In this document: in pieces, positions 1,456 to 52,469 of the stretch
Numbering within the stretch: position 1 is the first letter of the stretch
Layout: the number at the start of each line of letters is the position of its first letter
Origin: an uncultured Aquificales bacterium
GTDB lineage: Bacteria; Thermosulfidibacterota; Thermosulfidibacteria; Thermosulfidibacterales; Thermosulfidibacteraceae
Reading direction: 5' to 3'
Length of the DNA: 58,736 bases
NCBI GenBank assembly: GCA_964453345.1
Contig: CAYVOC010000002.1
Span: forward strand, 27,424 to 86,159
Translations under genes and position numbers: made by a program
The notes under the pieces: generated by a model
What the model was told of the DNA's origin: nothing
What the model saw: only the letters and a program-made list of their open reading frames with translations
Database searches by the model: none

Positions 1456-1467
1456 CCTCTCACCCCC

Positions 1468-3084: not shown

Positions 3085-3108
3085 GGGTCAATCCTCCTCA
3101 CACATTTT

Positions 3109-5103
3109 TTAGAAAAATCTCGCAAAGACATATATGCTGAACAGGCCGAAAAGCCCTGCTGCCACAAAAGCCATGTAGTGGGAAACCACTCCGGTCTGAA
3201 GCCTCCGCAAAACCCTGGCGGTGAGATCAACCACATAGGAAGCACCGTTTACAGCACCATCCACCACGAAGGGCTCCGTGCAGTATCTGGTAACCCAGGC
3301 CAAGCCCCTGGCCAAATAGGCCGCTCCGTTGACAATGCCGTCGATGATGAACTGATCAAACTTCCAAGAGACATAGGCAAGATCAAGGAGTCTATTGATG
3401 AACAGGGCAAAGTATATCTCATCAACATAGTATTTGCGGTAAAGCACCCTGTGAATGAGCCACATCTTGGGCAGAAGCTTTTCGGGATCGATAAGTCTTT
3501 TGAGGTGAACGATGTAAGCGATAAGAATTCCCGTCAACCCCACCGCAACGGATATGGCTATCAGAGCCCAGGCAGGAATAACCTCGGCATGCTCGGCAGC
3601 ATGGGCAAGATGCTCATGCCCATGATGGGCCGCATGGATCACAGGGGCAAGAAACTCGGCGAAGTAGGACTCCCCATGCCCGCTCTTTAGTCCAAAGAAT
3701 CCGACAGTGGCGGAACCTATGGCCAGAACTATAAGAGGAATGGTCATCACCTTGGGAGACTCGTGGAGATGATGCTTTATCTTCTCCGGTATGCGCTCCT
3801 TACCGAAGAAGGTCATAAATATGGCCCTGAAGGTGTAGTAGGCGGTGATGCCGGCCGTAAGGGTTCCCAAGAACCACAAGAAGTAATGGCCCGTGGTGAA
3901 GGCGTGGTGCAGTATCTCATCCTTGGACCAGAATCCGGCAAAGGGCGGTATACCAGACAGGGCAAGACCACCCACAATGAAGGTGGCAGCCGTTATGGGC
4001 ATGTATTTCTTAAGATTACCCATAAGCCTCATGTCGAGCACATCGCTCATGGCGTGCATAACGCTACCGGCAGAAAGGAAGAGCAACCCCTTGAAGAAGG
4101 CATGGGTCATGAGGTGGAAGACACCGGCGGCATAGGCTCCCACACCGCAGCCCAAAAACATGTATCCGAGCTGGGAAACGGTTGAGTAGGCCAGAACCCT
4201 CTTCAGATCAAACTGGCTTGTGCCGATGGTTCCGGCAAAGAAGGCGGTAAGACATCCGACAACGGCCACGACCTCCAGGGAGAGGGGTGCCATGTTATAC
4301 AGGATATTGGAACGGGCAACCATGTAAACACCTGATGTAACCATGGTAGCAGCGTGGATCAGAGCGGAAACGGGAGTGGGACCCTCCATGGCATCGGGCA
4401 ACCACACATACAGGGGAATCTGAGCCGACTTTCCGGTGGCACCCATGAAGAGACAAAGGGTGGCTATGGTCACCACTTCCGGAGAAAGGTGATGGGCCTT
4501 CTCAAAGACTTCCTTGAAGTCCAAGCTACCCAGATAATACCAGAGGGTAAACATACCTAAGATAAAGAAGGCATCGCCAACCCTGTTGGTGATGAAGGCC
4601 TTCATTCCGGCCTTCCAGGCTGACTCCCTCTCATACCAGAAACCTATGAGCAGGTAGGAACAGAGACCAACGCCCTCCCATCCAACGAAGAGCAGAAGAT
4701 AGGAGCTTCCAAGAACGAGAATAAGCATGAAGAAGACGAACATGTTGAGATAGGTGAAATACCTGGGATAACCAGGATCATGCCCCATGTAACCTATGGA
4801 GTAGACATGAATGAAGAAGGAGAGGGTGGTAACCACCATCAGCATAACAGCTGTAAGCTGATCAACCCAGAAGGCAACCTTTACATGAACATCCGGGGTT
4901 ACGATCCAATCCCAGAGAACAACCTCCCCGGTATGCCCATGAAGAACATCTATGAAGACCAGAATGGCGGTAAGCCACGCAAGCCCTAAAGCCGGAACGG
5001 CTATAAGGTGAGCCCTCTTCTTTATATACTTAACCCCGAACAGACCGTTTATGGTGAAACCCAAAAGCGGGAAAAGCGGAACCAGCCACACATACTTGAT
5101 CAT
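3109..5103 (-). CDS. nuoL: NADH-quinone oxidoreductase subunit L (extended lateral helix)
   Basis: GWEGVGLCSYLLIGFW, GKSAQIPLYVWLPDAMEGPTPVSALIHAATMV, C-terminal LQTG. Confidence 0.97.
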   Translation of the reverse strand: MIKYVWLVPLFPLLGFTINGLFGVKYIKKRAHLIAVPALGLAWLTAILVFIDVLHGHTGEVVLWDWIVTPDVHVKVAFWVDQLTAVMLMVVTTLSFFIHVYSIGYMGHDPGYPRYFTYLNMFVFFMLILVLGSSYLLLFVGWEGVGLCSYLLIGFWYERESAWKAGMKAFITNRVGDAFFILGMFTLWYYLGSLDFKEVFEKAHHLSPEVVTIATLCLFMGATGKSAQIPLYVWLPDAMEGPTPVSALIHAATMVTSGVYMVARSNILYNMAPLSLEVVAVVGCLTAFFAGTIGTSQFDLKRVLAYSTVSQLGYMFLGCGVGAYAAGVFHLMTHAFFKGLLFLSAGSVMHAMSDVLDMRLMGNLKKYMPITAATFIVGGLALSGIPPFAGFWSKDEILHHAFTTGHYFLWFLGTLTAGITAYYTFRAIFMTFFGKERIPEKIKHHLHESPKVMTIPLIVLAIGSATVGFFGLKSGHGESYFAEFLAPVIHAAHHGHEHLAHAAEHAEVIPAWALIAISVAVGLTGILIAYIVHLKRLIDPEKLLPKMWLIHRVLYRKYYVDEIYFALFINRLLDLAYVSWKFDQFIIDGIVNGAAYLARGLAWVTRYCTEPFVVDGAVNGASYVVDLTARVLRRLQTGVVSHYMAFVAAGLFGLFSIYVFARFF

Positions 5104-5113
5104 AGCGCCCTCC

Positions 5114-5416
5114 TCACCACTTCAACAGATTGAAGGAGTCTATGTTAACACTGAGCCTGTTTCTGAATATAGAGACCACTATGGCAAGGCCCACCGCAGC
5201 CTCACCCGCAGCAACAGTTATAACAAATATGGCCATTATCTGCCCGGCAACACTCCCCAGATGGGAAGCAAGCCCTATAAAGGCGATATTCACGGCATTC
5301 AACATAAGCTCTATGCCCATCAGCACTATAAAGACATTCCTCCTGCCCAAGGCCCCAAAAAGCCCTATGGCAAACATTAAGAAGGAGTATATCAGCACAT
5401 GGTTCAAGGGTATCAT
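5114..5416 (-). CDS. nuoK: NADH-quinone oxidoreductase subunit K
   Basis: 100 aa; [20 protein letters not shown]. Confidence 0.97.
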
Positions 5417-5419
5417 GGC

Positions 5420-5938
5420 CTACCTCTCCAGCTTGTTTTTGGCAAGAACTATAGCGCCAACCATGGCAGCAAGCAAAAGAACGGATGCCACCTCAAAGGG
5501 GAACAGATACTTGGTATAGAGAAGGGCACCTATACCCTCTGTGTTTCCGCCGTATTTGGCCGCCTCAGCCGCAACAGCTCCTGCCGTCTTGCCTGAAAAG
5601 CCCACATAGGCTATGGCGGCGAACTGGGCGAAAAGCAGAAAGGCCAAAAAGGCTGCTATTATCCTTTGCCCCATGTCCGGCTTCAGCTTGTCCGTCTCCC
5701 CGGCCTTAACCAGCATGATCACATACAGCATCAATCCCACAACTCCACCCGCATAGACGAGCACCTGGATAGCCGCCAGAAGCTCCGCCTTCAGCAGGAC
5801 AAAGACAGCGGCCATGAAGAAGAAGGTTATTATAAGACATATGGCCGAGTGAACCGGATTACGCCTGGTCACCACCAAAAGGGCAAATATCAGGGACAAA
5901 GCGGCAAATATATAGAAGAAGATCTGTGTTGAACCCAT
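5420..5938 (-). CDS. nuoJ: NADH-quinone oxidoreductase subunit J
   Basis: [24 protein letters not shown]. Confidence 0.96.
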
Positions 5939-5950
5939 CCTACTCCCCCT

Positions 5951-6391
5951 TCACTTCTTGAAAGTCCTTTCCCACTTCTTATAGTCCTCGGTGAGCTTGT
6001 CTATATCAAACTTAAACCAGTCTCTCTTATAGGTGGCACCCTCATAGAAGGTGGTCGTTTCAAGGGCGTTAACCGGACATATCTCCACGCAGAAGGCGCA
6101 ATATATGCACCTTGAAAAATCTATGTTGAACTCAACCGGATGCCTCTCCTTGCCCTTGCCCTCACCCTTCAGGCTTATACACTGGGCCGGACAAACCCTG
6201 GCGCACTGACCACAGGCTATACACTTAAAGGACCCATCCTCGTTCTTCACAAGCCTTATGAAACCGCGGAATCTGGGAAAGGGTTCCAGCTTCTCCTTGG
6301 GATACTGGACGGTTATGGGCTTGGTAAAGAAGTAGTGCAATGTTCTTCTCAAACCGGTTATCAGATCCTTCATCAAGACCTTGGCAACCAT
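5951..6391 (-). CDS. nuoI: NADH-quinone oxidoreductase subunit I (2x[4Fe-4S])
   Basis: Two CxxCxxCxxxCP motifs; TVQYP...RFRG. Confidence 0.97.
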
Positions 6392-6401
6392 CGGCTCCTC
6401 C

Positions 6402-7352
6402 TCACACCAGCATCATCACAATGCCTGTAACAAGGATGTTGGCCAGCACTATGGGCAACATGATCTTCCAACCTATCCTCATAAACTGATCATACCTGTA
6501 TCTCGGGAAGGTAGCCCTGACCCATATGAAGAAGAAGACGAAGATGAACATCTTTATAAGGAACCAGAGCCATCCCGGAAGTATGGGACCCTTCCAGCCC
6601 GCAAGGAAAACTATGGTGGCGATGGCGGAAACTATCAGCATATTCGCATATTCAGCCAGGAAGAAGTAGGCAAACTTCATGCCGCTATACTCGGTATGGA
6701 AACCAGCGACCAGCTCCGATTCAGCCTCGGGCAGGTCAAAGGGAACCCTGTTGATCTCACCCAAGGCAGCTATAATGTAGATGACAAAGGCCACAGGCTG
6801 ATAAACGATCAAAGGAACCTTCTGAACCTCAACTATCTTAGCGAGATCAAGGGATCCGGCTATCATAAGAGGGCCTATGAGAGAAAAGCCGAGAAATATC
6901 TCATAGGAGAACATCTGGGCCGCGGATCTCAGCCCTCCCAAGAGGGAGTATTTGCTACCGGAGGACCACCCGGCAAGGATTATACCCATAACGCCAACCG
7001 AGGCAATGGAAAGAATGTAAAGAAGACTTATGTTCACTCTGGTTATCATGAAATTCTTGTCTATGGGAATAACCGCAATAAGTGGCAAGGCGCACACCAA
7101 ACAGAGTATAGGCGCAAAGTAGAAGGTAAGCCTGTAGGCCTCGGTGGGAACTATATCCTCCTTGAAGAAGAGCTTCAAACCGTCGGCTATGGGTTGAAGC
7201 AAACCATGGGGACCAACCCTCATGGGCCCCATTCTCACCTGCATGTGTCCTATAACCTTCCTTTCCAGATAGGTGAGATAGGCCACAAAGAGCAGAGTGA
7301 TAACAAAAACCACTATGATTCTTAAAAGAGCAAGCCCGATGTCATGCCACAT
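6402..7352 (-). CDS. nuoH: NADH-quinone oxidoreductase subunit H
   Basis: [49 protein letters not shown]. Confidence 0.98.
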
Positions 7353-7361
7353 CTTCGCCTC

Positions 7362-8552
7362 CTACCTGTCAACCTCACCAAGCACTATGTCTATGCTTCC
7401 TATGGCGGCTATAACGTCCGCCACCATGTGTCCCTTAACAAGCTCCGGCAAAGCGATAAGATTGGCAAAAGAGGGTGTTCTGATCTTCAACCTGTAGGGT
7501 CTGGTCGAACCATCCGAAACGATATAATACCCCAGCTCTCCCTTGGGAGCCTCGGTGGCCATGTAAACCTCACCAGCAGGCGGCTTTATCACCTTGGGGA
7601 CCTTGGCCATGACGGGGCCTTCCGTCTTTTCAAGATACTCGACGCACTGCTTCACTATCTTGCAGGACTCAAGCATCTCCTTGCGCCTGACAAGATACCT
7701 GGCGTAAACATCGCACCCATCAAAGACCGCCACCTCAAAGTCCAGCTCGGGATAGACAGAATAGGGCTGATTGCGCCTCAGATCCCAGTTCACACCGGAA
7801 CCCCTCAAGCTCGGACCGGAAAGCCCAAGGGCCTTTGCCTTCTCAGCGGATATCTTGGATATGTTCACCGTTCTGGAGAGCCATATACGGTTGGAATAGA
7901 GCAGATCGTCGTAGTCCTTCACCCTTGAGGGGAATATCTCGCAGAACTCCTTAACCCTATCGAGAAAACCCTCGGGCAAATCGGCAGCCACACCACCTAT
8001 CCTGTAGAAAGAGGTGATGAGCCTTCCTCCCGTAAGCATCTCAAACATATCGAGAATCATTTCCCTTTCACGGAAACAGTAGAGGAAGACGGTCATGGCA
8101 CCGATATCAAGGGCGTGGGTTGCAAGCCAGAGAAGGTGGCTTGAAATCCTGGCAAGCTCGGCCAGCAAAACCCTTATGTATTCTGCCCTTTTCGGAACCT
8201 CTATACCCATGAGCTTCTCAACGGCCAGAACGTATCCAAAGTTCATGGCGGGAGACGCCAAGTAATCCAGCCTGTCGGTCAAAGGTATTATCTGGTGGTA
8301 GGTCCTGGCCTCTGCGAGCTTCTCGGTTCCTCTGTGAAGGTATCCTATGACAACCTCCGTATCAACGATCCTTTCACCCTGAAGCGACAGGATCAAACGC
8401 AGCACTCCGTGGGTGGAGGGGTGTTGAGGACCCATATTCACCCAGAGATCCTGGGTCTTTATAGTCTCCCTCATCAAATCATCTTCAACCTGACCGAGGG
8501 AAGTGCCCTTAGCCATAAGCTCCTTGAACTGCTGCTCCTCCTTCACGGCCAT
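7362..8552 (-). CDS. nuoD: NADH-quinone oxidoreductase subunit D
   Basis: NMGPQHPSTHGVLRL, GYLHRGTEK, DRLDY, DIVLGEVDR; no NiFe CxxC ligands; start moved to ATG 8552 behind a GAGGAG SD. Confidence 0.97.
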   Translation of the reverse strand: MAVKEEQQFKELMAKGTSLGQVEDDLMRETIKTQDLWVNMGPQHPSTHGVLRLILSLQGERIVDTEVVIGYLHRGTEKLAEARTYHQIIPLTDRLDYLASPAMNFGYVLAVEKLMGIEVPKRAEYIRVLLAELARISSHLLWLATHALDIGAMTVFLYCFREREMILDMFEMLTGGRLITSFYRIGGVAADLPEGFLDRVKEFCEIFPSRVKDYDDLLYSNRIWLSRTVNISKISAEKAKALGLSGPSLRGSGVNWDLRRNQPYSVYPELDFEVAVFDGCDVYARYLVRRKEMLESCKIVKQCVEYLEKTEGPVMAKVPKVIKPPAGEVYMATEAPKGELGYYIVSDGSTRPYRLKIRTPSFANLIALPELVKGHMVADVIAAIGSIDIVLGEVDR

Positions 8553-8563
8553 GACCACGCTCC

Positions 8564-9148
8564 TCAAAGCTTGTTATAGTAAGGCAAGTGCTCTCTGAGC
8601 CACTTCTCCCTGTATCCGGGAGGCCCCTCCAAGGGATAATCCTTCCTGAGAGGATGCCCCTCCCAATCCTCCGGCAGCAGAATTCTCCTCAGATCCGGAT
8701 GGTTTGCAAACCTTATTCCAAGCATGTCAAAGGCTTCCCTCTCAAACCAGTTGGCAGAGGGCCAGACCTCGCATACGCTCGGGACCTCTTCGTCCTCGGC
8801 TAAAGAGACCTTCAACCTCACCCTTTTGGCATGGGGAATGGAAAGCAGGTTATAGACCACCTCAAGGGGCTTTTCCCTCTTGGGATAGTGAACGCCACAA
8901 AGATCCGCCAAGTAATCGTATTTCAAGTCTTCATCGTCCCTGAGAAGCTTGCACACATCCACTATAAACTCCTTCTTTATCCTCAAACACAGGCAATCAC
9001 AGTGGAGTTCAGCCTCCTCTATAGCCTCCGGGAATTTAGACTTCACCTTCCTGTATTCGGGAAACTTGTTGAAATCCACCTTGGGTTTTTCCTGCTGCTC
9101 CTCTTTGGGTTTCTCCACCTTCTTAGCCTTGGGCTTCTCCTCAGCCAT
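8564..9148 (-). CDS. nuoC: NADH-quinone oxidoreductase subunit C
   Basis: [41 protein letters not shown]. Confidence 0.97.
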
Positions 9149-9151
9149 CTG

Positions 9152-9628
9152 CTACCTCCTGAGCACCTTTTCCTGGAAGATCTTCTCCTGAAGCCTTACC
9201 ACACCATACATGAGACCTTCAGGTCTGGGAGGACAACCGGGAACATACACATCCACCGGAACTATCTTATCCACCCCCTGAACCACATGGTAGGTGTTGT
9301 AGATACCCCCAGAATTGGCACAGGAACCCATAGATATAACCCACCTGGGCTCAGGCATCTGATCGTAAACCTTCCTCAGCACCGGAGCCATTTTGAGGGT
9401 AAGGGTTCCGGCGACAATCATCACATCGGACTGTCTGGGAGTGGCCCTGAAGATAACACCGAACCTGTCAAAGTCAAAGCGGGACGCACCCGCCGCCATC
9501 ATCTCAATGGCGCAACAGGCAAGACCAAAGGTCATGGGCCAAAGGGATGACGCCCTGGCCCAGTTAACAACCTTGTCAATCACCTCAAAAAGCTTGTTAT
9601 CCGGCAAGCTCCTCTCTATCACTCCCAT
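9152..9628 (-). CDS. nuoB: NADH-quinone oxidoreductase subunit B
   Basis: [26 protein letters not shown] (N2 cluster ligands). Confidence 0.98.
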
Positions 9629-9984
9629 TCCAACGCTCCTTTCGCCCAGGCATAGATATATCCAATAAGAAGAATCACAATAAACAGAAACATTTCAACA
9701 AAACCCCAGAGGCCAAGCTTCTTATACATGGCCGCCCAGGGATACATGAAAACCGCTTCAACATCAAAGAGCAAAAAGAGCAGGATTATCACAAAGAACC
9801 TGATAGGAACCCTGACCTTGGCGGGCATAAGGGGATTGATACCACATTCATAGGCGGAGAGCTTCTCATCATAGGGCTTATTCGGCCTGACCAGATAGGA
9901 AACGATAAGGGTAACGACACCAAATGCAATAGCAAGCACAAAAAGGATCAAAACTGGAACATACGGACTTATGTGCTGATACAT
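9619..9984 (-). CDS. nuoA: NADH-quinone oxidoreductase subunit A
   Basis: [26 protein letters not shown]. Confidence 0.97.
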
Positions 9985-27119: not shown

Positions 27120-28540
27120 ACCCTTACCTCCTCCACCTCCCCGATAAGATGCCCGTATTTTTTCAAAATAGGCTCAACCTCCACCTCCACAAACTCCACA
27201 ACCTGAGAAGGTGCCCTTCCAATGAATCTGGACGGATTCATAAGCTTCGAAATATCCTCTTCGGTGAGTCCGAAGTCAGGATCCTCCGCTATCCTCTCAA
27301 GAAGCCTGGGTTTCTCTCCCTCCTTTTCCCTTTGGGCCTCCTCAAAGGCATAGCGCCTTATCTTCTCGTGGAGAAGCTGCCTGTCCCCTCCCCTTTTTAC
27401 GGCCTCCATGAGTATCTCCTCAACCGCAACAAAGGGGAGCTTCTCCTTAAGCCTTCTCTCTATAACCCTGGGATGGACCACCAGCCCCTTCACCACATTG
27501 ATTGCGAGTATCAGAATGGCATCGGTGGCCATAAAGGCCTCAGGTATAGTGACCCTCCTGATTGCAGAATCATCCAGGGTTCTTTCCATCCACTGTAGAG
27601 ACGGAGTATACTCAAAGGTTTCTAAATAGGCTATCACAAGCCTGGCTATAGAGCAGATCCTCTCGCACTTCATGGGATTGCGCTTATAGGGCATGGCGGA
27701 CGATCCCACCTGCCTTTTACCGAAGGGCTCCTCGAGCTCCCCGAAGGACATAAGTATCCTTATATCCGTGGCCATCTTATGGCAGGACTGGGCGATTCCT
27801 GAAAGCACCTGGGCGACCATGTAATCCTGCTTTCTGGTGTAGGTCTGCCCGGTTATCAAAAACCTTCTCTCAAAGCCGAACTTGGCGGCAACAAGCTCAT
27901 CAAGCCTTCTGACCTTCTCCTCATCCCCGTTAAACAGCTTCATAAAGCTGTCCTGGGTGCCCGTGGTCCCCTTGACCCCCCTGAACTTCAGATTCTCCAT
28001 GGCAAACTCTAAGGCCTTCAGATCCTCCACAAACTCCTGAAGCCAGAGGGCGGCCCTCTTTCCTACAGTGGTGGGCTGGGCGAACTGAAGATGGGTATAG
28101 CCCAAGCAGGGAAGATCCCTGTATTTCAGGGCAAAGTCCTTCAGAGCAGCGATGAGATTGACCAGCCTCTTCAACACTATTCTCAAAGCATCCCTTATAA
28201 TAATTACATCGGCATTATCCGTGACATAGCAGCTTGTGGCTCCCAGATGTATTATGGGTCTGGCCTTCGGGCACTGCTCTCCAAAGGCGTGTATGTGGGC
28301 CATAACATCGTGCTTCAGCTCCCTCTCAAGCTCCTTTGCCCTATCAAGGTTGAGGTTATCCACGTTTGCGCGCATCTCCTCTATCTGCTCTTCAGTAATG
28401 GGCAACCCCAGCTCCCTTTCGGCCTCCGCAAGAGCCACCCACAGTTGCCTCCAGATCTTGAACCTCCTTTCGGTCGCAAAAACGGAAAGCATCTCAGAGG
28501 AAGCGTATCTTTCCACAAGGGGATGCTCAAACATCTCCAC
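27116..28540 (-). CDS. purB: Adenylosuccinate lyase
   Basis: [32 protein letters not shown]. Confidence 0.97.
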
Positions 28541-29102
28541 CTCCCACCGGCAACCTGCTCAGGATAAGCTCCACAACCCTCTCAAAGGGTTCCACCACCC
28601 CCACCCCTTTGTGGGCAACAGACTCAAAGCTGTCAACACCCCCCAAATTCAATTTCTCCTCCAGCACCTCCACAGGGAGGGCATCCTCAAGATCCCTCTT
28701 GTTGTATTGAAAAACCAAAGGCATGTAGTTCAGATCCAGCCCCACCTCCCTGCAAAAGACCTCGAGTTCCTTCAAGGTCAAAAGGTTATCCTCAAGTCTT
28801 TTGGCAGAGGAATCAGCAACAAAGACTATGCCATCCGCCCCTCTAAGAACGAGCTTCTTTGTGGAGGCATACACCACCTGGCCGGCCACAGTGTAGGCGG
28901 AAATCAAAACCCTCTTTCCATTCATCCTTTTCTCAACGGGCAGATAGTCGAAAAAGACGGTCCTTCCAGAGGTCTCCCTCAGCTTCACAGGTAGAGACCC
29001 GCCCAGGGACTCCGCAATCTTCTCTAAGGTTGTGGTCTTCCCCGAACCACCCGGACCGTAATACACAACCTTTATCCGCACAGCATCAGGGGTTACTATC
29101 AT
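28527..29102 (-). CDS. MglA-family small Ras-like GTPase
   Basis: [14 protein letters not shown] (G1), RTVFFD (G2 with intrinsic Arg), TVAGQ (G3), [15 protein letters not shown] (G4). Confidence 0.93.
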
Positions 29103-29881
29103 CTTCTCTTCCTTAACCTGTCTATAGCAGCCTTAAGAGACACCCTCATCCTCTCAAGGGCTTCAGCCAGCAGATCTATATCGTCCCCATCCTCCACAAA
29201 CTCTATCTCAACATCAAGATCGCCAAGGGAGATGGCCTCGGCCTTATCCCTCAAATACTCAAGCCTATCGGCGATATCCTTCCCCACAACCGTTATCAGC
29301 ACCACCGCAATCAATATAACAAGCAGGGAAACGCCCGTGGTCATAAAGACAAGCTTTTTCTGAGTTTTTATAACAGTCTCAAAGGCGGTGGGCATAACCA
29401 CAAATATGTGAGCAAGCCTGCCCCCGTAAACCTTCCTATGAAGTATAAAGACCTTGGAATAGGAGAGCCCTTTAAAGCTGACGCTATCAGGCAGGCTATA
29501 CAGTATAAGATGCTCGTTGCCGGGTTGATCCATAAGCCTTTTAAACTCAGGCTCAAGCACCTTCAGCGCCCTCTCGTTTTTGGGCGCATAGGCCGCAAGG
29601 GTCTTATCCCCCCTGTAAACAACATCCATCAGTATGGAAAAGGGCCTTGAAAAGGATGAAACAATTTTATCAATTGCGGCAATGTCGTTGGCCAAAAGCG
29701 GTTCCTTAAGAGAGGTCTCCAAGCTCTCCACCATATTCCTTCCGCTGTCCTGGATCTGCCGGGTAAGGACCTTGGTGTGAAAGAGCACCGCCAGAAGCCC
29801 TATCACAAAGGAAACAACAAAGACTGAGCCAACGCTTATCAAGATCAGCTTCTTCCTTATCCTCATCCTTCTCAAAAGCAT
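29099..29881 (-). CDS. Two-TM membrane receptor ending in a HAMP domain, with no output domain
   Basis: TM1, ~140-aa extracytoplasmic domain, TM2, HAMP ([10 protein letters not shown]...[17 protein letters not shown]), then stop. Confidence 0.85.
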
Positions 29882-29898
29882 TTCATCCCTCCAGCATC

Positions 29899-30438
29899 TT
29901 ACTCAGAAAGTCCTTCTTCTATCTCCTTTTTCAACAGGCTGATTATATCATCAAGCGACTCCCTTTCAGGGGGTCTATCCGCCTTCTCCACAACCTCCTC
30001 AGGAACCTTCCCGGACAGAAAATCTCCCACGGCCCGTGAAACATCCATACTCTCCACAATAGGAAGGATCTTTTTTCTAAACTGGGAAACGTGCAATTTT
30101 AACACCCCAAAGCGGACCTCGTCCGTGGGGTAAAGCACAAAGGCAAAGGTGTCCCCCGAAACCTTAAAGGCGTAAACCGAGACCCCTGAACCCTCCATAA
30201 GCACAGTATTCGCCCCAGAAAGACCGGAAAGGGAAAAGAGTTCCTGAACCGCAGAAAAGATACCGGCCATAAGAGCCGCCATTGCATCAACCGGAAGCTT
30301 TCTGCTGGAGGAGAACCCCACTATCTGTCCCGAAATATGGGCGAGAACCACCAAGGAGGCACCGGACTTGTTCCTGAAATCCATAAGAAGCCTCTTCAAC
30401 TGTCCCATCTGCTCCTCTGAAAGGCCCACAACCTCCAT
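29899..30438 (-). CDS. MglB-like roadblock/LC7 protein
   Basis: [31 protein letters not shown]-terminal acidic helix LDDIISLL; in an operon with the MglA GTPase. Confidence 0.85.
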
Positions 30439-30439
30439 C

Positions 30440-31396
30440 TCACTCCCCCACAAGGGCGTCAAACAGCTCGCTCACAGCCTCGCTATCCTTAACCAGCCTG
30501 GCCGCAGAAGCCGAGGCCAGCTTCCTGACTTCATCCGGAATCTGAGAAGCTATCTCCGTTAGCAGAGCGGCCATACCCTCTATAAGCCTATCCGTATCAA
30601 TCCCCTCCTCTATAATGATCCTGCCATCCCTGAAATAAACATCGGGATCAAAGGGATCGAGGAAGGGATAATCCTCAGCAAGCTTCAAAGCGGCCCTTTT
30701 GAATCCCCTCTCACCAATGTGGGGCCATATCTCCGGGAGAATGGCGTTAAAGAACTCCTTCACCGCCCCAACCACATCAGCGGTGGTCTTTGCCGACTCC
30801 ATATCCTCAGCCTCAAATTTTCTGTCAAAAACCGCCTCTATCAAGGAAAAAGAGGCGGTTTCAGAGCTGTTCAATTGATGCATCATCTCCATGGCATCAT
30901 CGCCGGCAAGGGTCGCTTCAGGATCTTCATAGAGAAAATCAAAGGGCTCACCCGAAAAGAAAAAGGCCATAAAAGTAGCCCCCTTCTTCTCATCCTCAAC
31001 CAGAAGCACACCTGTAAACTCTTTTTTTGAGAGGTGCTCCATAAGCCTTTCGGTGTCCACTATCCCAAAGGGAACATTACTGAACAGAGGCTCTGCCGAA
31101 TACACAGCGGAAATCACACTCAGAAGCTCCGGATCCAGTGAATATACACTTATCAGGCCTGACCCATCCGAAATTCCTCTCTTTATAAGTTCAGACAACG
31201 CATCCCTGCCACCGCTCCCCCTATGAACCCCAACCACCCTTCCCTTCTCAAGGAAGATAACCCCCTCATCATCCTCAAAATCGAGCTTCACATAACCGCT
31301 GAATCCCTCCTCGGACAGTTCCTCAAGAAGGCTATCCAGCTTAACCACCTTGGTTTTAAGGTTGGTATAGACCGGCTTACCCCTTGGAAGCACCAT
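30440..31396 (-). CDS. Hypothetical protein with two tandem DUF2226/DUF4388-like domains
   Basis: Internal repeat LLEELSEEGFSGYVKL...IFLEKG / LMEHLSKKEFTGVLLV...FFFSG; ATG 31396 behind GGGGAGG. Confidence 0.7.
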   Translation of the reverse strand: MVLPRGKPVYTNLKTKVVKLDSLLEELSEEGFSGYVKLDFEDDEGVIFLEKGRVVGVHRGSGGRDALSELIKRGISDGSGLISVYSLDPELLSVISAVYSAEPLFSNVPFGIVDTERLMEHLSKKEFTGVLLVEDEKKGATFMAFFFSGEPFDFLYEDPEATLAGDDAMEMMHQLNSSETASFSLIEAVFDRKFEAEDMESAKTTADVVGAVKEFFNAILPEIWPHIGERGFKRAALKLAEDYPFLDPFDPDVYFRDGRIIIEEGIDTDRLIEGMAALLTEIASQIPDEVRKLASASAARLVKDSEAVSELFDALVGE

Positions 31397-31505
31397 CGCA
31401 GCCCTCCCCAAAGGCTTCCTTCAAAAATTAGCAAAAAGGGAAAGCCACAAAAAGTCAACAGAAAAACGCCTTGCCGAAATCCTAAAAGTAGAATACAAAG
31501 CAGGT

Positions 31506-44331: not shown

Positions 44332-44817
44332 ATGCAGGAAGAGAGGCTGGAAATATCCCATAAGAGAAGAATAACGAGGCTCATAGACCACATAGAAACC
44401 AGCATACAGATCCTCATAGCCTTCAGTCTGCTCCTCATCGCCCTTGCCCTTCTCATCCACACCATAATACACACCGTTCAACAGCTATCCACAGGGAAGA
44501 ATGTGATACACACCACCATAAAGGGGATTCAGGACATACTCTTAGTGATCATAATCCTCGAGATACTGTGGACGGTGGTGAGCTTCATAGAATCAAGCAC
44601 CATCCCCTTAGAACCCTTCCTCATAATAGCAATCATCTCAAGCGTCAGAGGCCTCATCCTTCAGAGCACCAAAACCATAGAAGCCACAGGGCATGAACTG
44701 AACCAGGTGATAATAGAGATCGGAATCCACGGATTATCCATTTTAGTGCTTGTGATAGCTCTATACATCCTGAGGAAAAGCAGGAAGTTTACCTCTCAAA
44801 CAGTTAAAAAGGGCTGA
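44332..44817 (+). CDS. PsiE-like membrane protein
   Basis: 4 [29 protein letters not shown]. Confidence 0.8.
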
Positions 44818-44844
44818 GGGAGGAAATCTCCCTCAGCCGGTTTA
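44806..44844. terminator. Bidirectional intrinsic terminator
   Basis: 11-bp stem GGCTGAGGGAG-GAAAT-CTCCCTCAGCC (44812-44838) between convergent genes. Confidence 0.85.
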
Positions 44845-44845
44845 C

Positions 44846-46177
44846 TCAAATCACCCCCTCTTCCTTCAACTCCTCCAGTTCCTTTTTGGCGTAGTTCATG
44901 AAGATCTTGTAGATGTATTCGTTATCGGCACCAACAGGGCGGCAGATCCACTTTACCCTGGGCGGGGTTTCCGTCATCTTCCAGGGCTGGGTGCATATCA
45001 CAAGCTCGCCATACACAGGATCGTTGAACTTAATGAGCGTTCCCCTCTCCCACCAGTTTTCCGTGTGCATGGCATCCCAGGCGGAAACCACCTTTCCGGG
45101 AACCACAACACCGCCCTTGCCGCTTTCCTTGGCCTCCTTGTTTGCCTTCATGACTATATCAAAGATCTCCTGATAGTTCTTATCCACCGTCCACTTCTCT
45201 ATCTCATGATAGGCGGCCTTCTGGTTCTCGAAGTTCAGCCTTTCAAAGACCGTTGGATACTTCTCCTTCAGATCCGGACGCTCTATAATTTCACACAGCA
45301 AGGCCCAGTTGGGATCGGCAAAACCGGACAGGAAGCAGTATCCATCCTTGCACTTAAAGTAAGTGTAGCAGAAAACTCCCGCATCAAGGTTTCCAACCCT
45401 CTCCACATTCTCTCCGTAAACCTGGTAATAGGTCAGGTTGTAATTTATCATTCTGCCGTATGCCTCAGCGGGAGAAAGATCTATCATCTGTCCCTTACCG
45501 GTCTTGTGCCTGTAGTGAAGGGCCACCAGTATGGCGAAGGCGGCGTAGGCACCACCCGCATACCAGCCCATCCAGTTGCCCTGCTTTGTGGGAACCTCCC
45601 ACTCCTTGGGATCGCTCGGATCCTCCACATACTCTCCGGAAACATAGGTGATACCGCTCATGGCCTGGTCAATCACATCAACATCGGCCTTGTTGCATGC
45701 GGCCTTTGGTCCAAACTGTCCGTAGGTGTATATGGCGCAGTAGATAAGACCGGGATTCTCCTCCCTCAACTGTCTGTAACCTATACCCCACTCATCCATC
45801 GTTCCGGGAAGGAAGCTCTCTATAACCACATCCACCTTCTTGGCAAGCTTTTTGAAGATTTCCCTTCCCTTCTCGGTCTCAAGGTTGAGGGTTATGTGAT
45901 ACTTGTTCCTGCCCTCATTCAAATACCCGAGACCCTCTCCCTTGTGGGTAACCCCGAAGGGAGTGAACTTTCTGGCCGGATCCCCCTCGGGCGGCTCTAT
46001 CTTTATAACATTGGCCCCAAGCTCCGCCAGAATGGAGGAGCAGAAGGCACCGGCTATATTCGCACAGGAACAGTCTATAACCCACAGATCATCCAGGGCC
46101 TCTGGCTTACGCCAGGCCTCCCTCGGATCGTCATGCTCCCTTATCCAATCTGCCCAAGGCTTTTTGATCTCAGTCAT
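44846..46177 (-). CDS. Family III (CaiB/BaiF) CoA-transferase, type B subunit (catalytic Asp replaced by Trp)
   Basis: [38 protein letters not shown] at the Asp position. Confidence 0.9.
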   Translation of the reverse strand: MTEIKKPWADWIREHDDPREAWRKPEALDDLWVIDCSCANIAGAFCSSILAELGANVIKIEPPEGDPARKFTPFGVTHKGEGLGYLNEGRNKYHITLNLETEKGREIFKKLAKKVDVVIESFLPGTMDEWGIGYRQLREENPGLIYCAIYTYGQFGPKAACNKADVDVIDQAMSGITYVSGEYVEDPSDPKEWEVPTKQGNWMGWYAGGAYAAFAILVALHYRHKTGKGQMIDLSPAEAYGRMINYNLTYYQVYGENVERVGNLDAGVFCYTYFKCKDGYCFLSGFADPNWALLCEIIERPDLKEKYPTVFERLNFENQKAAYHEIEKWTVDKNYQEIFDIVMKANKEAKESGKGGVVVPGKVVSAWDAMHTENWWERGTLIKFNDPVYGELVICTQPWKMTETPPRVKWICRPVGADNEYIYKIFMNYAKKELEELKEEGVI

Positions 46178-46201
46178 CCTTCCATACCTCCCAACCTGTT
46201 T

Positions 46202-47542
46202 TTAGGGATAAAGGACTCCAGATTTGCCATCCCAATCTTCAGGCGGCTTTCTTCCCGGCATATCGTTCCACTTGCCTATAATGCCCTTCTCCTCCAGCTC
46301 CTTGATCCTATCCCAGCTCAAACCAAGGAACTTGGTGAGGACATAGTAGGTGTCAAAGCCCACGGGTCTTCCGGCCCACTTGATCCTTCCGGGAGTCTCA
46401 CTGAGCTTTGGAGCAACCCCTTCAAGGTAAAACTCTCCATAAATGGGATCCTTAACCAGCCACTTAAAGCCGCGCACCTCAAAGTGGGGATCGGTGTATA
46501 TGTCCTTGGCGCTGTGGACCTTCTCAGCGCCAAACCCGTATTTCTGGGCCAGTTTATCAATGTCGGGCCACACCAGGCTTGCCACCCACTCCTTCACTAT
46601 CTTGAGCAACTCCTCGGCATTCTCAGGCTTTGTCCTTTCAATGTTCGTGGCAAACCTGGGATCGTCGGCAAGCTCAGGCCTGCCCATTGCCTGGCACAGG
46701 CCCCTGAACTGCTCATCGGTGGCGCAACCTATGGCAACGAACTCCTTGTCCTTGGAGAGGAAGATATCGCTGGGGCATATGGCCACATCCCTGTTCCCGT
46801 ATCTGTCCCTGGGTTTTCCGGTAAGGTGCTGGTAGATCCAGGTCCAGTCCATTGCCCTCATGATATTTTCGGCCTGGGACAGCTCTATATACTGACCCTT
46901 GCCGGTCTTCTCCCTGTAGTGAAGGGCCGCAAGCACACCCACAGCCGCCATTATTCCGCCGTAAAAATCACACAGCCAGATCCCCGATTTCATGGGAAGC
47001 CTTCCGGGGAAACCGGAAATCCAGGCCTCTCCCGACTCAGACTGAGCAATGGCATCGTAGGAAGGCCTGTCAACATAGGGTCCCCACTGACCGAATCCGT
47101 TGTTGGCAATGTAGATGAGCTGAGGGTTGATCTCCTTCATCTGGCGGTATCCTATGCCCCACCTGTCCAAGGTTCCCGCCCTCAAGTTCTCCACGAAGAC
47201 ATCCGCCCTTCTTATAAGCTCCATGAAGATCTCTTTGCCCTCATCGTAGTGCAGATCCAGGCCAATACTGTATTTGTTCCTGGCCACCTTGATAAAACCG
47301 ATGGCCTGATTCTTGTAGAAGCGTCCCCAGGGGGTAAGGGACCTCATGGTGTCGCCCATGCCGGGCATCTCGATCTTTATCACCTTGGCCCCGAACTCCG
47401 CGAGCAACCCGGGGGTTTCGGGACCAAGGATGAGGGTGCAGAACTCAACAACAGTGATATCGTCCAGAGCCTCCGGCTTTTCAAACACCTTCTCAATAGA
47501 AAACTCCTGCTCAGCCCATTTCAGGAAATCTTCCTGTGCCAT
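46202..47542 (-). CDS. Family III (CaiB/BaiF) CoA-transferase, type A subunit (catalytic Asp present)
   Basis: [45 protein letters not shown] 47542 behind GGAGG. Confidence 0.92.
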
Positions 47543-47574
47543 AAGTTTTCCTCCCTTGGCTGTTTTTCGGAAGT

Positions 47575-47606
47575 TTAATAAAATCAAACGGGCATTATTT
47601 TGTCAA
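47575..47606 (-). promoter_or_regulatory. Possible sigma-70 promoter for the second CoA-transferase pair
   Basis: TTGACA (47606-47601) with AT-rich TTTTATTAA at about 17-nt spacing. Confidence 0.45.
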
Positions 47607-47634
47607 GAACAGGGCTTAAAAATTTTTGCAATTC

Positions 47635-48987
47635 TCAAATAACCCCGGACTCCTTCAACTCTCTGAGTCTGGTCGGCCCGTATCCTAACAGTTTTTTATA
47701 TACAAATTGGTTGTCTGCACCCACGGGCCTGCACACCCACTTTACCCTGCCCGGCGTTCTGGACATGGCGTGGAAGGAGGAATCCTGAATCAACACTTTG
47801 CCGTAGTGGGGATCCTCCACTTCAATAAAGGTCTTCCTGATCCTCCAGTGCTCCCTTTCAAGGACATCCTTAGGCTCCTCAAGTCTTCCGGTGACAACCG
47901 TTCCCTTCTTATCAGGACGCCTGCTGTATTCGGTTATTATCTCCAGAAGCTCATCGGAGGTGTGGTTCTGGGTCCACTTCTCTATCTCGTGTTGGATCTT
48001 GGGCTGATTCTCAGGCGTCAATCTTTCCTTAATAGTGGGGAACCGCTCCTTCAAATCGGGCCTGTTCATAATCTCACACAGAGCAGTCCAGTTGGGATCG
48101 GTAAAGCCTGAAATGAAGGCGTATCCATCCTTGCACCTGAAATAGGAATAGGGGAAGACCGCGTAATCGTAGTTTCCGGCCCTGACCATCTTCCTTCCGG
48201 TCATGTGATAAAACTGGAAGAGGTAGTTTGCTATGGAGAAGAGTCCCTCAGGAGGCGAACAGTCTATAAACTGGCCCTTACCGAACCTATACCTGTGGAA
48301 CAGGGCAAGGTTTATGCCAAAGGCGGCCCAGGCGCCCGCAACATACCAGCCCATCCAGTTGCCATGCTTCAGGGGCCTTTTATACTCCTCTGGCACCTCC
48401 GGATCCAGCTCAGGCTCACCCGTAACGGACATTATAACGCCCCTTGCCTGATCATTCAGATCGTAATCGGGCTGGTTGGAGTGCTTTTCAGATTCACAGC
48501 CGAAATGCCCGTAGGTGTGAATGGCGCAGTATATGAGCTTGGGGTTTATCTTATTTAAAACATCGTAACCCAGCCCGAGAGAATGCATATAGCCCGGCTT
48601 GAAGGTCTCTATCAAAACATCGGCTTTAAGAACGAGCTTTTTGAAGATCTCCCTTCCCTCTTGGGTCTCAAGATTGAGGGTGATGTGATACTTGTTTCTG
48701 CCCTCAACTATGTAGGGAAGGCCGGCGTCCTTTATCATCATGCCATAGGGGGTCATCTTCCTCGCTATATCGCCACCGGGGGGCTCTATCCTTATAACCT
48801 CTGCCCCCAGCTCCGCCAGAATGGAGGAGCAGAAAAGCCCCGCAAAGCTGCCGTAGCTTACATCCAGAACGGTGATGTCGCTGAGGGCTTCAGGTTTGTA
48901 GGGTATATCCTCGGGCTTTGTTATGCTGTATATAAACTTTGCATAATCCTCGTTTATTGCCATTCCCACGATCTTCTTCTCATCCAT
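47635..48987 (-). CDS. Family III (CaiB/BaiF) CoA-transferase, type B subunit (catalytic Asp replaced by Trp)
   Basis: Close paralog of 44846..46177; GNWMGWY at the Asp position. Confidence 0.9.
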
Positions 48988-49014
48988 CTTCCCACCTCCA
49001 AGATCTTGCTAAAA

Positions 49015-50349
49015 TTAAGGATACTTTACTCCAGATTTGCCGTCCCAGTCGGGAGGCGGACAGGTTGAGGGGATATTGGGGTTCCACTTAAATATAACCC
49101 CCTCTTGCTCCAGCCTTTTCACCTCTTCCAGGGGAAGCCCCAGGATATTCACGAATACATACTCGTTATCAAAGCCCACGGGCCTTGCACCCCACTTAAC
49201 GCGGCTGGGGGTCTGGCTCATCCTCGGAGGATAGGCCTGCTCCTTGAAGAAGCCGTAAACCTCGTCCTCATACTCCTGAATGGCCTTTCTCTCGTTGAAG
49301 TGCTCAGAATGATAGACGTCATCCACCTCAAGGACCCTGGTGGCGGCAAACCCGTATTTGTCAGCAAGCCTTATGATATACTCAGAACTCTTATCCTTAA
49401 CCCAGTCGGCTATCTCCTTCAGAAGGGCCCTGGCGTTCTCGTCCTTGAGCCTCTCAAGGGGATCCTTATACTTCTCAAACAGGTCCATTCTACCCATGGC
49501 CTTACACAGGCCCTCAAACTCCTCTTCGGTGAATGCGGTTATGGCAACCCAGCCATCGGCGCAGTCAAAAAGATCCGAGGGGCATATGGCGAGATCCCTG
49601 TTTCCAGCGCGGGGCCTGTTCTTACCCGTGAGATAGACGTATAACCAGGTCCAGTCCAGCATCCTTATAACGTTCTCCACCTGCTGCATATCTATGAACT
49701 GTCCCTCTCCCGTCTTTTCCCTGTAGTTCAGAGCGGCCACTATGGCCACCGCACACATCAAACCGTTTATCCAGTCTGCAATCCAGACACCGCTCTTTAT
49801 GGGCCCCCTATCCTCAAACCCTGTTATATAAGCCAAGCCTCCCATGGACTGGGCGATGGCGTCATAGGACGTCCTTCCCGTCCAAGGGCCCCAGCTCCCG
49901 AAACCGGACACGTGAAGATACACGATTCTGGGGTTAACCTCCCTCAGGACGCTGTAATCCACCCCCCACTGGGCCATCCTTCCGGGGGTGAGGTTGTCCA
50001 CCACCACATCTGCCTTCTCCACAAACTTCAAAAACAGCTCCTTCGCCTTGGGATGGCCAAGGTGCATGCCCACCCAGTAGCGGTTGTGCTGCTGCTCCCA
50101 CAAACCGGGGGACATATTCTTCCAGAAGTAAGCAAAAGGAGTAACAAAACGCATCTGATCCCCATGGGCGGGCTCAAACTTTATAACCTCAGCCCCGAAC
50201 TCCGCCAAAAAATCAACCGCAGCCGGTCCAAGAACAACGGCCGTGACATCAAGGACCCTGATGCCCTTCAAAACCTCCGGTTTTTCAAACAGCTTCTCCG
50301 GATCAAAAAGATTCCTAATAAGTTCTTGATAAGATGAAGCTTGTTTCAT
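49015..50349 (-). CDS. Family III (CaiB/BaiF) CoA-transferase, type A subunit (catalytic Asp present)
   Basis: [27 protein letters not shown]; close paralog of 46202..47542 (shared C-terminus [12 protein letters not shown]). Confidence 0.92.
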
Positions 50350-50387: not shown

Positions 50388-50418
50388 AATTTATTACATT
50401 GGGTTCTACTTCTGTCAA
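50388..50418 (-). promoter_or_regulatory. Possible sigma-70 promoter for the first CoA-transferase pair
   Basis: TTGACA (50418-50413) followed by AT-rich TAATAAATT in the -10 region. Confidence 0.45.
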
Positions 50419-50462: not shown

Positions 50463-50498
50463 AAAAATAAATAAAAACGGGGCGGTTTTACCCGCCCC
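50463..50498 (-). terminator. Intrinsic terminator after the abfD-like gene
   Basis: Stem GGGGCGG/CCGCCCC (50479-50498) followed by a long T-rich tract on the minus strand. Confidence 0.8.
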
Positions 50499-50506
50499 AA
50501 AAATTT

Positions 50507-51934
50507 CTAACCAAGGTTTAATAAATCTCTAACCAGTTTCACCTTCTCCTCAACGTTGGCGAGGCGCTTGATGAAGAGGTTGGGTGTTATGGGGGAGCCG
50601 CCACCGTGCACCGCTCCTCCCTCGTGGGGACCGGCAACCCAGTATTCTATGAACTTTATCACCTTCATACGGGCTTCCGTGGGCACATCCGACCTTCCCT
50701 TGAGATAATGTTCTATGTATTTGCCTATCTCCGGATTCTTCAAATCTCTTTCGGAGGGGCAGGTGACGCATATACCGCCCGCAATATCCGCAAGATAAAC
50801 GATGGCGTCCCCGATGGCGGTGAAGCCCAGAATCTTTGAAACATTTGAATAGAGTCCATCGGGAAGCCATACACCGGAGGAAGTCTGCTTGGCCTCATAC
50901 CCCGCAGCCAAGGCGCAGGCGTAGCATCCCTCACAGCCCCTTATCATCTCGGTGATCTTGGCCTGTATATGCGAAGCATTGGGGACCCCATTATAGTCAG
51001 CCATAAGCTCCGCAGCACCGATTATTGTGTCTATGAAGCCCGCCTTACAGCCAGAGCCAACGTATCTGTGTATATTGGCAAAGTTGCCCACAAGGGGCGC
51101 GGCAAACTTATACTCCTCACACATGAAAACCCGCTCCCAGGGGATGAAAACATTGTCAAAAATCATAAGGCATGTGCCCCTGACGCCGTAGGGGTTGCCA
51201 AACTCCCACTCTCCATCCTCCCTTCTCTTTGCCTCAAAGGCGTTGTTCTGCATCACATAGATAAGCCCCTCGGCACCCGCCTCCACGGCAAAGGCAACAG
51301 CATAAGCCTTATCCTCCTCCTTCAAAGCAATGGTAGGCATAACAATAGTCTCATCCGCAGCCACAGCCCCGGACTGATGGGCCTTGGCGCCCCTCACCAC
51401 AATTCCGTCGGAGCGCTTCTCCACTATCTTCAGATACATGTCGTCCTGCTCGTGGGGCTTCTTGCTCCTGTCCCCCTTCACATCGGTGAGGGCACCGGAA
51501 AGGGCAAGGTCGTTCTTCTGGGCATACTTTATGTATTCCACAAGCCTCTTGTGGTATTCGGTTCCGAGCTGCTTATCCATCTCATAGGTGACGGTGTAGA
51601 GGGCGTTAAGGGCATCGGAGCCCACACACCTGTAGTTGCAGGTGGCAAGCCTCTGGCTGTAAAAACGGGCAAGCTTCAATCTTGCAAGCAGATCCTCCTT
51701 GGTGGTGTAAATATGCAGGAACCTGTTGACGGGCTCGTCTATAAACTGGGAGTGGGCGGTCGTCAGATCCTTATACTCATCGTGAAGGGCAAGCTCGTAG
51801 GTCAAGCCTATGGAGTCAACTATGGGCTTGATATTTGGATGATTCACAAAATCTGAAACCTTTTCCCCGTTTACATAAACCTTCAGCTGTTTTTTTGATA
51901 ACCTCTCCACGTATTGCTCTTTTGTGATTAACAT
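50507..51934 (-). CDS. 4-hydroxybutyryl-CoA dehydratase (AbfD)/HpaB-family FAD and [4Fe-4S] protein
   Basis: CNYRC and H-x6-C (HRYVGSGC) Fe-S ligands, [32 protein letters not shown]. Confidence 0.88.
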
Positions 51935-52031: not shown

Positions 52032-52469
52032 ATGCAGCAGACGAACCCGGCCGTTGAGGAAATCATACTGGGTATGAGAAACATGCGTCCATACATAAGA
52101 AAACTTTTCTCCTATGCCACAGACATGGCGGATGCTGAAATGCTTATTCTTTCACTGCTTTACAACTCACCGGACGGTAAGATGCTGTTAAGTCAGCTGC
52201 ACAACGAACTTGTCCCGGTAAGGGCAAGCAAACTCACCAACATCACCAACAAGCTTGAAGACAAGGGATACATAAAGAAGCAGCGCCTGAAGAGCGACAG
52301 GAGAAAGGTGATCATATCCATCACCCCCAAGGGCAGACACGCCTACGAAAAGTTTGAGGACGCCTTAAGAGAGGTGATCTCGAAAAACATTGACAGGCTA
52401 ACCGACGAGGAAAAGGAGACCCTTAAGAGGAGCTTCGTCATCTGGACAAAGCTCCTTGAGAACGTGTAG
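52032..52469 (+). CDS. MarR-family transcriptional regulator
   Basis: [25 protein letters not shown] wing motif; ATG 52032 behind GGAGG. Confidence 0.92.

Follow-up and report, generated by a model that had tools for sequence, protein, structure and literature searches.

Two tandem gene pairs of an uncultured Aquificales bacterium probably encode heteromeric family III CoA-transferases with the catalytic aspartate in one subunit of each

Homodimeric family III coenzyme A (CoA)-transferases such as YfdE, SUGCT, Frc, CaiB, succinyl-CoA:mesaconate CoA-transferase and succinate-glutarate CoA-transferase share one fold and one catalytic aspartate and possess two identical active sites. Benzylsuccinate CoA-transferase (BbsEF), an enzyme of the toluene pathway, is built from two paralogous family III subunits, BbsE and BbsF, which we take to be encoded by adjacent genes and to assemble as α2β2. 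A further variant is the DddD type, in which two CaiB domains lie in one protein (excerpt of PMC7174347); with about 800 residues, such a CaiB-CaiB protein is a built-in pseudo-heterodimer. The mechanism of the family, with active sites at the dimer interface, is outlined in an excerpt of PMC9813914. Here, we analyzed a 58,736-nucleotide (nt) stretch of DNA from an uncultured Aquificales bacterium (contig CAYVOC010000002.1, positions 27,424 to 86,159; hereafter, the window), which carries four family III genes, A1, B1, A2 and B2, in tandem. The A proteins have the same catalytic Asp as the homodimeric enzymes, and the B proteins have Trp in its place. We propose that A1-B1 and A2-B2 would form two heteromeric enzymes of the BbsEF type, and we give a probability of roughly 70% to the reading that they are two two-subunit CoA-transferases with the catalytic Asp in one subunit each.

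All four CaiB/BaiF paralogs listed in the initial annotation were present as open reading frames (ORFs) on the minus strand, namely A1 (49015..50349), B1 (47635..48987), A2 (46202..47542) and B2 (44846..46177). The Pfam family PF02515 covered the four proteins end to end (profile positions 1-365/366, 328-380 bits, E values of 1e-98 to 2e-113; individually 3.5e-113 for A1, 7.4e-102 for B1, 1.9e-113 for A2 and 9.9e-98 for B2). The resemblance of A1 to A2 and of B1 to B2 was borne out, with identities of 48% and 52%, respectively, versus 35-37% between A and B proteins. At its C terminus, A1 is extended by about 25 residues, a feature specific to A-type proteins, and B1 has a conserved insertion of about 9-10 residues directly before Trp214. 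B1 and B2 are members of the family III fold, which does not in itself imply that they are enzymes.

Where the last Rossmann helix begins, A1 and A2 have the catalytic Asp, and B1 and B2 have Trp in its place. The codons assigned to these residues beforehand were exact: Asp192 in A1 (49774-49776) and in A2 (46967-46969), Trp214 in B1 (48346-48348) and Trp205 in B2 (45563-45565). The equivalence of Asp and Trp, which had been left for alignment to confirm, held in three independent alignments, two made with phmmer and one with hhalign. In the phmmer comparisons with solved structures, the Asp of the A1 motif GVWIAD aligned with the catalytic-loop Asp of YfdE (4hl6) and SUGCT (9br6), and the Trp of the B1 motif GNWMGW fell on the Asp of 4ed9 and SUGCT. 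In the hhalign profile-profile comparison of 40 A-type with 40 B-type sequences, KSGVWIAD was placed on KHGNWMGW with a probability of 100%.

Both residues are strongly conserved. D192 was invariant in the A-type alignment (40/40 rows), and W214 was found in at least 90% of the 40 B-type rows. Among the closest 120 homologs of B1 (67-88% identity), 117 had Trp and 1 had Cys, the remaining 2 not being matched by the search pattern; the extended motif GNWMGWY occurred in 99 of the 120. In related loci, Asp was present in 44/45 A1-type and 10/10 A2-type orthologs, and the Trp pattern matched 43/50 B1-type and 8/8 B2-type orthologs, with the other seven B1 rows outside the pattern. B is as conserved as A, the orthologs of both being 66-73% identical across domains of life. 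We considered two other identities for B. A decaying pseudogene was rejected because the frames are intact and 66-73% identical across phyla. An enzyme resembling alpha-methylacyl-CoA racemase was rejected because that enzyme also requires the Asp and because its PDB matches are far weaker.

The locus compares closely with BbsEF. Both consist of two paralogous family III subunits, and in both an aromatic residue stands in place of the nucleophile: Tyr in the BbsEF chain 9fn0_A (placed at the Asp column by alignment with a paralog from the genome of the window), Trp in the two pairs described here, and His in a third pair of the same genome. Because one solved BbsEF chain has Tyr at the Asp column, the heteromeric build with an Asp-less subunit is already known, and the pairs here, judged by their sequences, are a well-preserved example of it. 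BbsEF is not orthologous to them (81-121 bits), and both A1 and B1 scored higher against chain B of 9fn0 than against chain A. The substrate surely differs from that of BbsEF. Neither bbs beta-oxidation genes nor benzylsuccinate synthase were found nearby, where the neighbors are an AbfD-like gene, a MarR-type gene and housekeeping genes. In a non-exhaustive literature search, no paper was found that dealt with the structure of BbsEF, with a family III subunit lacking the Asp or with the A/B clade described here. Compared with DddD-type proteins, the two halves are separate genes here, and compared with the homodimeric enzymes, the proposed A·B dimer would not have two identical active sites.

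Gene order and phylogeny support a partnership of A and B. In 47 related loci, the sequence reached 1400 nt or more beyond the start of the B1 homolog, and in 47/47 an A-type gene lay directly upstream, with a median gap of 36 nt. By record titles, these loci belong to Archaeoglobi, Syntrophobacterales (Desulfacinum, Desulfosoma), Desulfobaccales, Desulfobacterales and metagenome-assembled genomes (MAGs) labelled Aquificota or Thermosulfidibacter. In a FastTree phylogeny of 80 rows, which omitted domain matches of fewer than 330 residues and the two-domain proteins numbered above P0150, A and B fell in separate clades. The A clade comprised A1, A2 and a third paralog, and every member had Asp. 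The B clade comprised B1, B2 and a third paralog; its 17 rows had Trp, His, Phe, Thr or Ser, and none had Asp.

Fused relatives point in the same direction. We surveyed the best 150 representatives retrieved with B1 from 1.84 billion proteins, 144 of which gave one or more domain matches of over 250 residues, and 115 of these 144 were two-domain proteins of about 800 residues. Exactly one domain carried the Asp in 102/115, both in 12 and neither in 1. The single Asp lay usually in the C-terminal domain (among P0131-P0274), and the Asp-less domain had Glu, Tyr, Ala, Gln, Ser, His, Trp or others. These fusions form a clade apart from the A/B pairs, and they usually begin with the Asp-less domain, the reverse of the gene order here, in which A precedes B. 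Two fusions contain a B or B-like domain. P0129 (1037 amino acids (aa); a cluster of 34 sequences from many contigs) combines a B-like His domain with an Asp domain, and P0125 (916 aa) is an A(Asp)-then-B(Trp) fusion in the same order as the genes here. A further candidate, the 851-aa open frame G006:C61, was rejected as a fusion, being an ordinary A3-B3 gene pair with a stop codon between (throughout, G000 is the genome of the window, other G numbers are related genomes, and L numbers are loci with related genes). Overall, the loss of one of two nucleophiles appears to be common in family III once the halves differ.

We then considered the A1+B1 complex as modelled from 40-row alignments in three runs with 3 controls. 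The pair scored 0.97, versus 0.00 for the best of the 3 controls; this mark was reached by 116/157 solved complexes and by 2/215 mismatched pairs. The runs agreed in at least 98% of contacts, with a partner predicted local distance difference test (pLDDT) value of at least 94 and about 600 cross-chain contacts, and the helices after D192 and W214 are predicted to pack together (e.g., A1 residue 197 against B1 residue 219). It is conceivable that A and B do not associate at all. A would then be a homodimeric transferase of the usual sort, and B would pair with itself and serve the same pathway in some way other than CoA transfer (e.g., by acyl-CoA binding, regulation or other chemistry). The solved family members that were matched, BbsEF apart, are deposited as single proteins, and the complex test cannot separate heterodimers from homodimers because family III always dimerizes. 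However, strict A-then-B adjacency with short gaps at every locus counted, the existence of fused forms and the precedent of BbsEF, in which an Asp-less chain is part of a solved complex, make separate homodimers quite unlikely. The proposed heterodimer with one nucleophile is thus favored by gene order, clades, fusions, the model and BbsEF, although the model alone fits a homodimer too.

Several observations weigh against our proposal. The pass of the A1+B1 model would probably also be obtained for homodimers or cross pairs, and it may reflect likeness to solved family III dimers. None of the four proteins reached an NCBIfam equivalog cut-off, the best being succinyl-CoA:mesaconate CoA-transferase at 238 bits versus 700. 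The fusion P0125, the only one in A-then-B order, is represented by a single sequence from one MAG and may be an artefact of read-through. The catalytic column of 9fn0 chain B was not covered by any alignment, including those from sub-region and paralog queries, and the Asp of that chain is inferred. Finally, B1 scored 101 bits against chain B and 90 bits against the Asp-less chain A; since it is closer to the former, the loss of Asp in B was probably independent of that in BbsEF.

Another carboxylate could also reach the B pocket; the insertion before Trp has conserved E191 and D195. Both subunits might then be catalytic, with B using one of these residues or a non-covalent ternary-complex route, so that two different sites would serve two substrates. 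Purifying selection on B is as strong as on A, and B keeps many family-conserved residues (GD..R, the equivalents of N89 and D163/Q167, and the GN loop) together with an insertion in which E191, D195, P196 and P199 are conserved at 90% or more in the 40 B-type rows. However, none of the 17 B-clade members of the tree has Asp at the column, and the same one-Asp pattern recurs in 102/115 fusions. In addition, most of the insertion (residues 192-201) is absent from the confident interface contacts of the model, and the active sites of the family are at the interface. A second catalytic site in B is therefore unlikely in our view.

We thus retain the one-Asp heteromer and outline a putative mechanism. 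Each pair would probably be an interlocked A·B dimer, possibly (AB)2. A alone would supply the aspartate for the acyl-aspartyl anhydride and aspartyl-CoA thioester intermediates, and B would retain the fold and most family-conserved residues with Trp at the position of the nucleophile. Since only A has the nucleophile, one of the two interface cavities would be catalytic, and the other would be an altered, non-nucleophilic pocket. The fold family, the Asp/Trp columns, the gene pairing and the clade structure are direct observations; that B is catalytically dead is suggested by the absent Asp, and physical heterodimerization by gene pairing, clades, fusions and the model. As in the initial annotation, the heterodimers might also be obligate, B might shape specificity, and the two pairs might act on different acids.

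The initial annotation regarded the four genes as a duplicated two-gene unit. The likeness of A1 to A2 and of B1 to B2 agrees with this idea, but a recent tandem duplication does not. A1-B1 shares 66-73% identity with its orthologs in Archaeoglobi and Desulfobacterota versus 48-52% with A2-B2; being closer to orthologs of distant lineages than to the neighboring pair, it cannot be a recent copy of that pair. A2-B2 was found only in the Aquificota-labelled lineage. The four proteins might also form one larger assembly (e.g., A1B1·A2B2) in which CoA would move between two acids in successive steps. In favor of this reading, 8 related loci (L001-L006, L018 and L052) retain all four genes as a block, in either order and sometimes with overlapping genes, and L036 has a partial block with a truncated B1. 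However, most other lineages have A1-B1 but not A2-B2, the two pairs are set apart by a terminator-like hairpin in L018, and A2 has a conserved TTGACA box in front of it. We therefore consider a joint assembly very improbable and treat the pairs as two enzymes.

Further copies occur in the same genome. G000 (1.5 Mb, 99.9% complete) has nine PF02515 genes, four of them in the window. The third A/B pair lies outside the window (C34:158-2779, L057); its A member has Asp (WIGD) and its B member His (GNWMAH), a His that is kept in the G006 ortholog (L060:3-1226). A sodium/bile-acid-family symporter gene and a 4HBT thioesterase gene adjoin this pair. A fourth, more distant tandem pair (C23:1627-4559, L058) has Asp in both members (GVWLAD and TNWCID) and long N-terminal extensions, and a single PF02515 gene lies on contig C4, outside the window. 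No pathway emerged from the context of the C34, C23 and C4 copies, whose neighbors are mostly housekeeping genes. B-like genes were found in 17/17 searched genomes of the same order (1.2-2.0 Mb), mostly with 4-8 matches, and in none of 23 searched genomes outside the order at E 1e-60 or better; because the genomes are kin, these counts are not independent. In a genome of the same genus, the B2 ortholog (G002:C23:12348-13685) has one in-frame TAG, which could be a sequencing error or mark a broken gene.

Ribosome-binding sites precede all four starts in the window. The genes are co-oriented, and the A-B gaps are 27 and 24 nt. The likely start of A2 is the ATG at 47542, preceded by a GGGAGG ribosome site; the longest frame opens at TTG 47587. 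A TTGACA box had been proposed before each pair. Both boxes were found, on the minus strand at 50413..50418 (5′ of A1) and 47601..47606 (5′ of A2, a possible internal promoter), but a generic promoter scan picked neither, its 7 hits versus 6.8 expected being not above chance. The boxes recur in close relatives despite diverged flanks: before A1, the same place is occupied by TTGACA in L001 and TTGCCA in L039, and before A2, the box is kept with a 17-nt spacer, followed by a T-rich second element, in L001, L002 and L003. Since the scan performed at chance and TTGACA occurs 43 times in the window, promoters at these boxes are only plausible. Terminator-like hairpins lie on the minus strand 3′ of B2 (44812..44838; 11-bp stem with 8 G-C pairs and a T tail) and, as a strong candidate, 3′ of the AbfD-like gene (50478..50499; 8-bp stem with 7 G-C pairs and a T tail). 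An 837-aa open frame runs antisense over B2 and A2 (45065-47578, plus strand). Similar long antisense frames lie over transferase genes in 18 loci, the window included, and are probably a by-product of codon composition.

Just upstream of A1, in a separate transcription unit, lies a gene with HpaB_N and HpaB domains (50507..51934, minus strand) that encodes a homolog of the 4-hydroxybutyryl-CoA dehydratase/vinylacetyl-CoA isomerase AbfD. The protein matched 1u8v with an E value of 6e-121, and the columns of Cys99, Cys103, His292 and Cys299 (1u8v numbering), which we take to be the [4Fe-4S] cluster ligands, are all conserved. Divergent from it is a gene for a MarR-type regulator (52032..52469, plus strand, start read from sequence; MarR and winged-helix Pfam matches); a MarR-type gene adjoins the cluster also in L001, L039 and L052. 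The usual partner of AbfD is the 4-hydroxybutyrate CoA-transferase AbfT (Cat2), which belongs to the unrelated acetyl-CoA hydrolase/transferase family (PF13336). A search of the 99.9%-complete G000 found no transferase of PF13336 (AbfT/Cat1 type), and the pairs described here may fill its role.

The remainder of a 4-hydroxybutyrate route is encoded in the genome. G000 has a thiolase and homologs of acyl-CoA dehydrogenase, enoyl-CoA hydratase and 3-hydroxyacyl-CoA dehydrogenase, so that the enzymes from crotonyl-CoA to acetyl-CoA are encoded elsewhere in it, together with two Fe-type alcohol dehydrogenases and aldehyde dehydrogenases. Only the activating enzyme is absent from a route from 4-hydroxybutyrate through 4-hydroxybutyryl-CoA and crotonyl-CoA to acetyl-CoA, and the adjacent pairs could therefore supply the activation, for which succinyl-CoA or acetyl-CoA might serve as CoA donor. 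Additionally, 6 Desulfobaccales-type loci have AbfD-like genes (39-42% identity) a few kb or less from A1-B1. Around A1-B1, loci of this type have genes for an acyl-CoA dehydrogenase, two enoyl-CoA hydratases, a carboxyltransferase, a thioesterase, family I CoA-transferase subunits and a thiolase, a set that looks like a glutaryl/glutaconyl-to-crotonyl-CoA module. The best solved or curated matches of the A subunits are dicarboxylate enzymes, namely YfdE (7e-44), SUGCT (2e-43) and the mesaconate and glutarate transferase models NF041294 and NF052585. Taken together, the gene neighborhoods and homologies suggest that the substrates are probably C4-C5 hydroxy- or dicarboxylic acids feeding crotonyl-CoA metabolism.

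The link to any one substrate is weakened by several findings. The AbfD-like gene has its own terminator-like hairpin. Within the order, a dehydratase homolog of 90-93% identity adjoins the transferase genes only in the closest relatives, G002 and G005, and weaker homologs (37-48%) lie on other contigs. In Archaeoglobi and Desulfobacterales, adenosine monophosphate (AMP)-forming acyl-CoA synthetases follow the A1-B1 pair, and neighbors vary both in close relatives and elsewhere (AMP-forming ligases, enoyl-CoA hydratases, thioesterases and a carboxyltransferase). Given the separate terminator, the narrow adjacency and the variable neighbors, 4-hydroxybutyrate is the leading candidate, yet only a tentative and somewhat doubtful one, for at least one pair.

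Two other gene groupings were observed around these loci. A small gene for a 4HBT-fold thioesterase recurs beside or inside A/B clusters of unrelated lineages (L039:5628-6092, L052:9361-9873, L057:4423-4899, and Desulfobaccales and Desulfobacterales loci, e.g., L020:1823-2281 and L028:3988-4539). On the contig of the window in G000, 8-14 kb before the window start (C2:13111-19227), tblastn matches to both subunits of a family I CoA-transferase, an acyl-CoA dehydrogenase and an enoyl-CoA hydratase lie together.

Elsewhere in the window, a block of NADH:quinone oxidoreductase genes occupies positions 1-9984 of the minus strand and runs off the window start. Its Pfam matches are of the NuoN, M, L, J, I, H, D and A types, and these positions showed no gene of the NuoE, F or G type. 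A run of four ORFs (191, 260, 187 and 323 aa; 28527-31411, minus strand) had no Pfam match at E 1e-8 or better. The 8 sequencing runs listed for the stretch are DNA, and the organism-labelled ones are hydrothermal vent metagenomes.

Current annotation labels every protein of this kind "CaiB/BaiF CoA transferase" and counts each as an enzyme of its own. If B-type proteins lack the nucleophile and occur only with an A partner, gene counts and pathway models would be corrected for many anaerobes. The count of 102 one-Asp fusions among 115 generalizes the picture drawn from BbsEF and DddD. A1-B1 is about 70% identical from Archaeoglobi to bacteria; its unusual conservation across archaea and bacteria and the lack of an assigned substrate make it a sensible choice for biochemical study, and the adjacent dehydratase gene together with the missing usual 4-hydroxybutyrate CoA-transferase provides a concrete and cheap hypothesis. 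We further speculate, and regard it as rather unlikely in its entirety, that A1-B1 is a heteromeric CoA-transferase that spread horizontally among thermophilic and sulfate- or iron-reducing anaerobes and replaces the AbfT-type enzyme in activating 4-hydroxybutyrate or a related C4-C5 acid on a route to crotonyl-CoA, the invariant Trp making the second cavity a dedicated binding or gating pocket rather than just a dead site. If true, single-site heteromeric transferases would handle a large part of the organic-acid metabolism of this vent lineage, whose genomes of 1.2-2 Mb have three to four such pairs.

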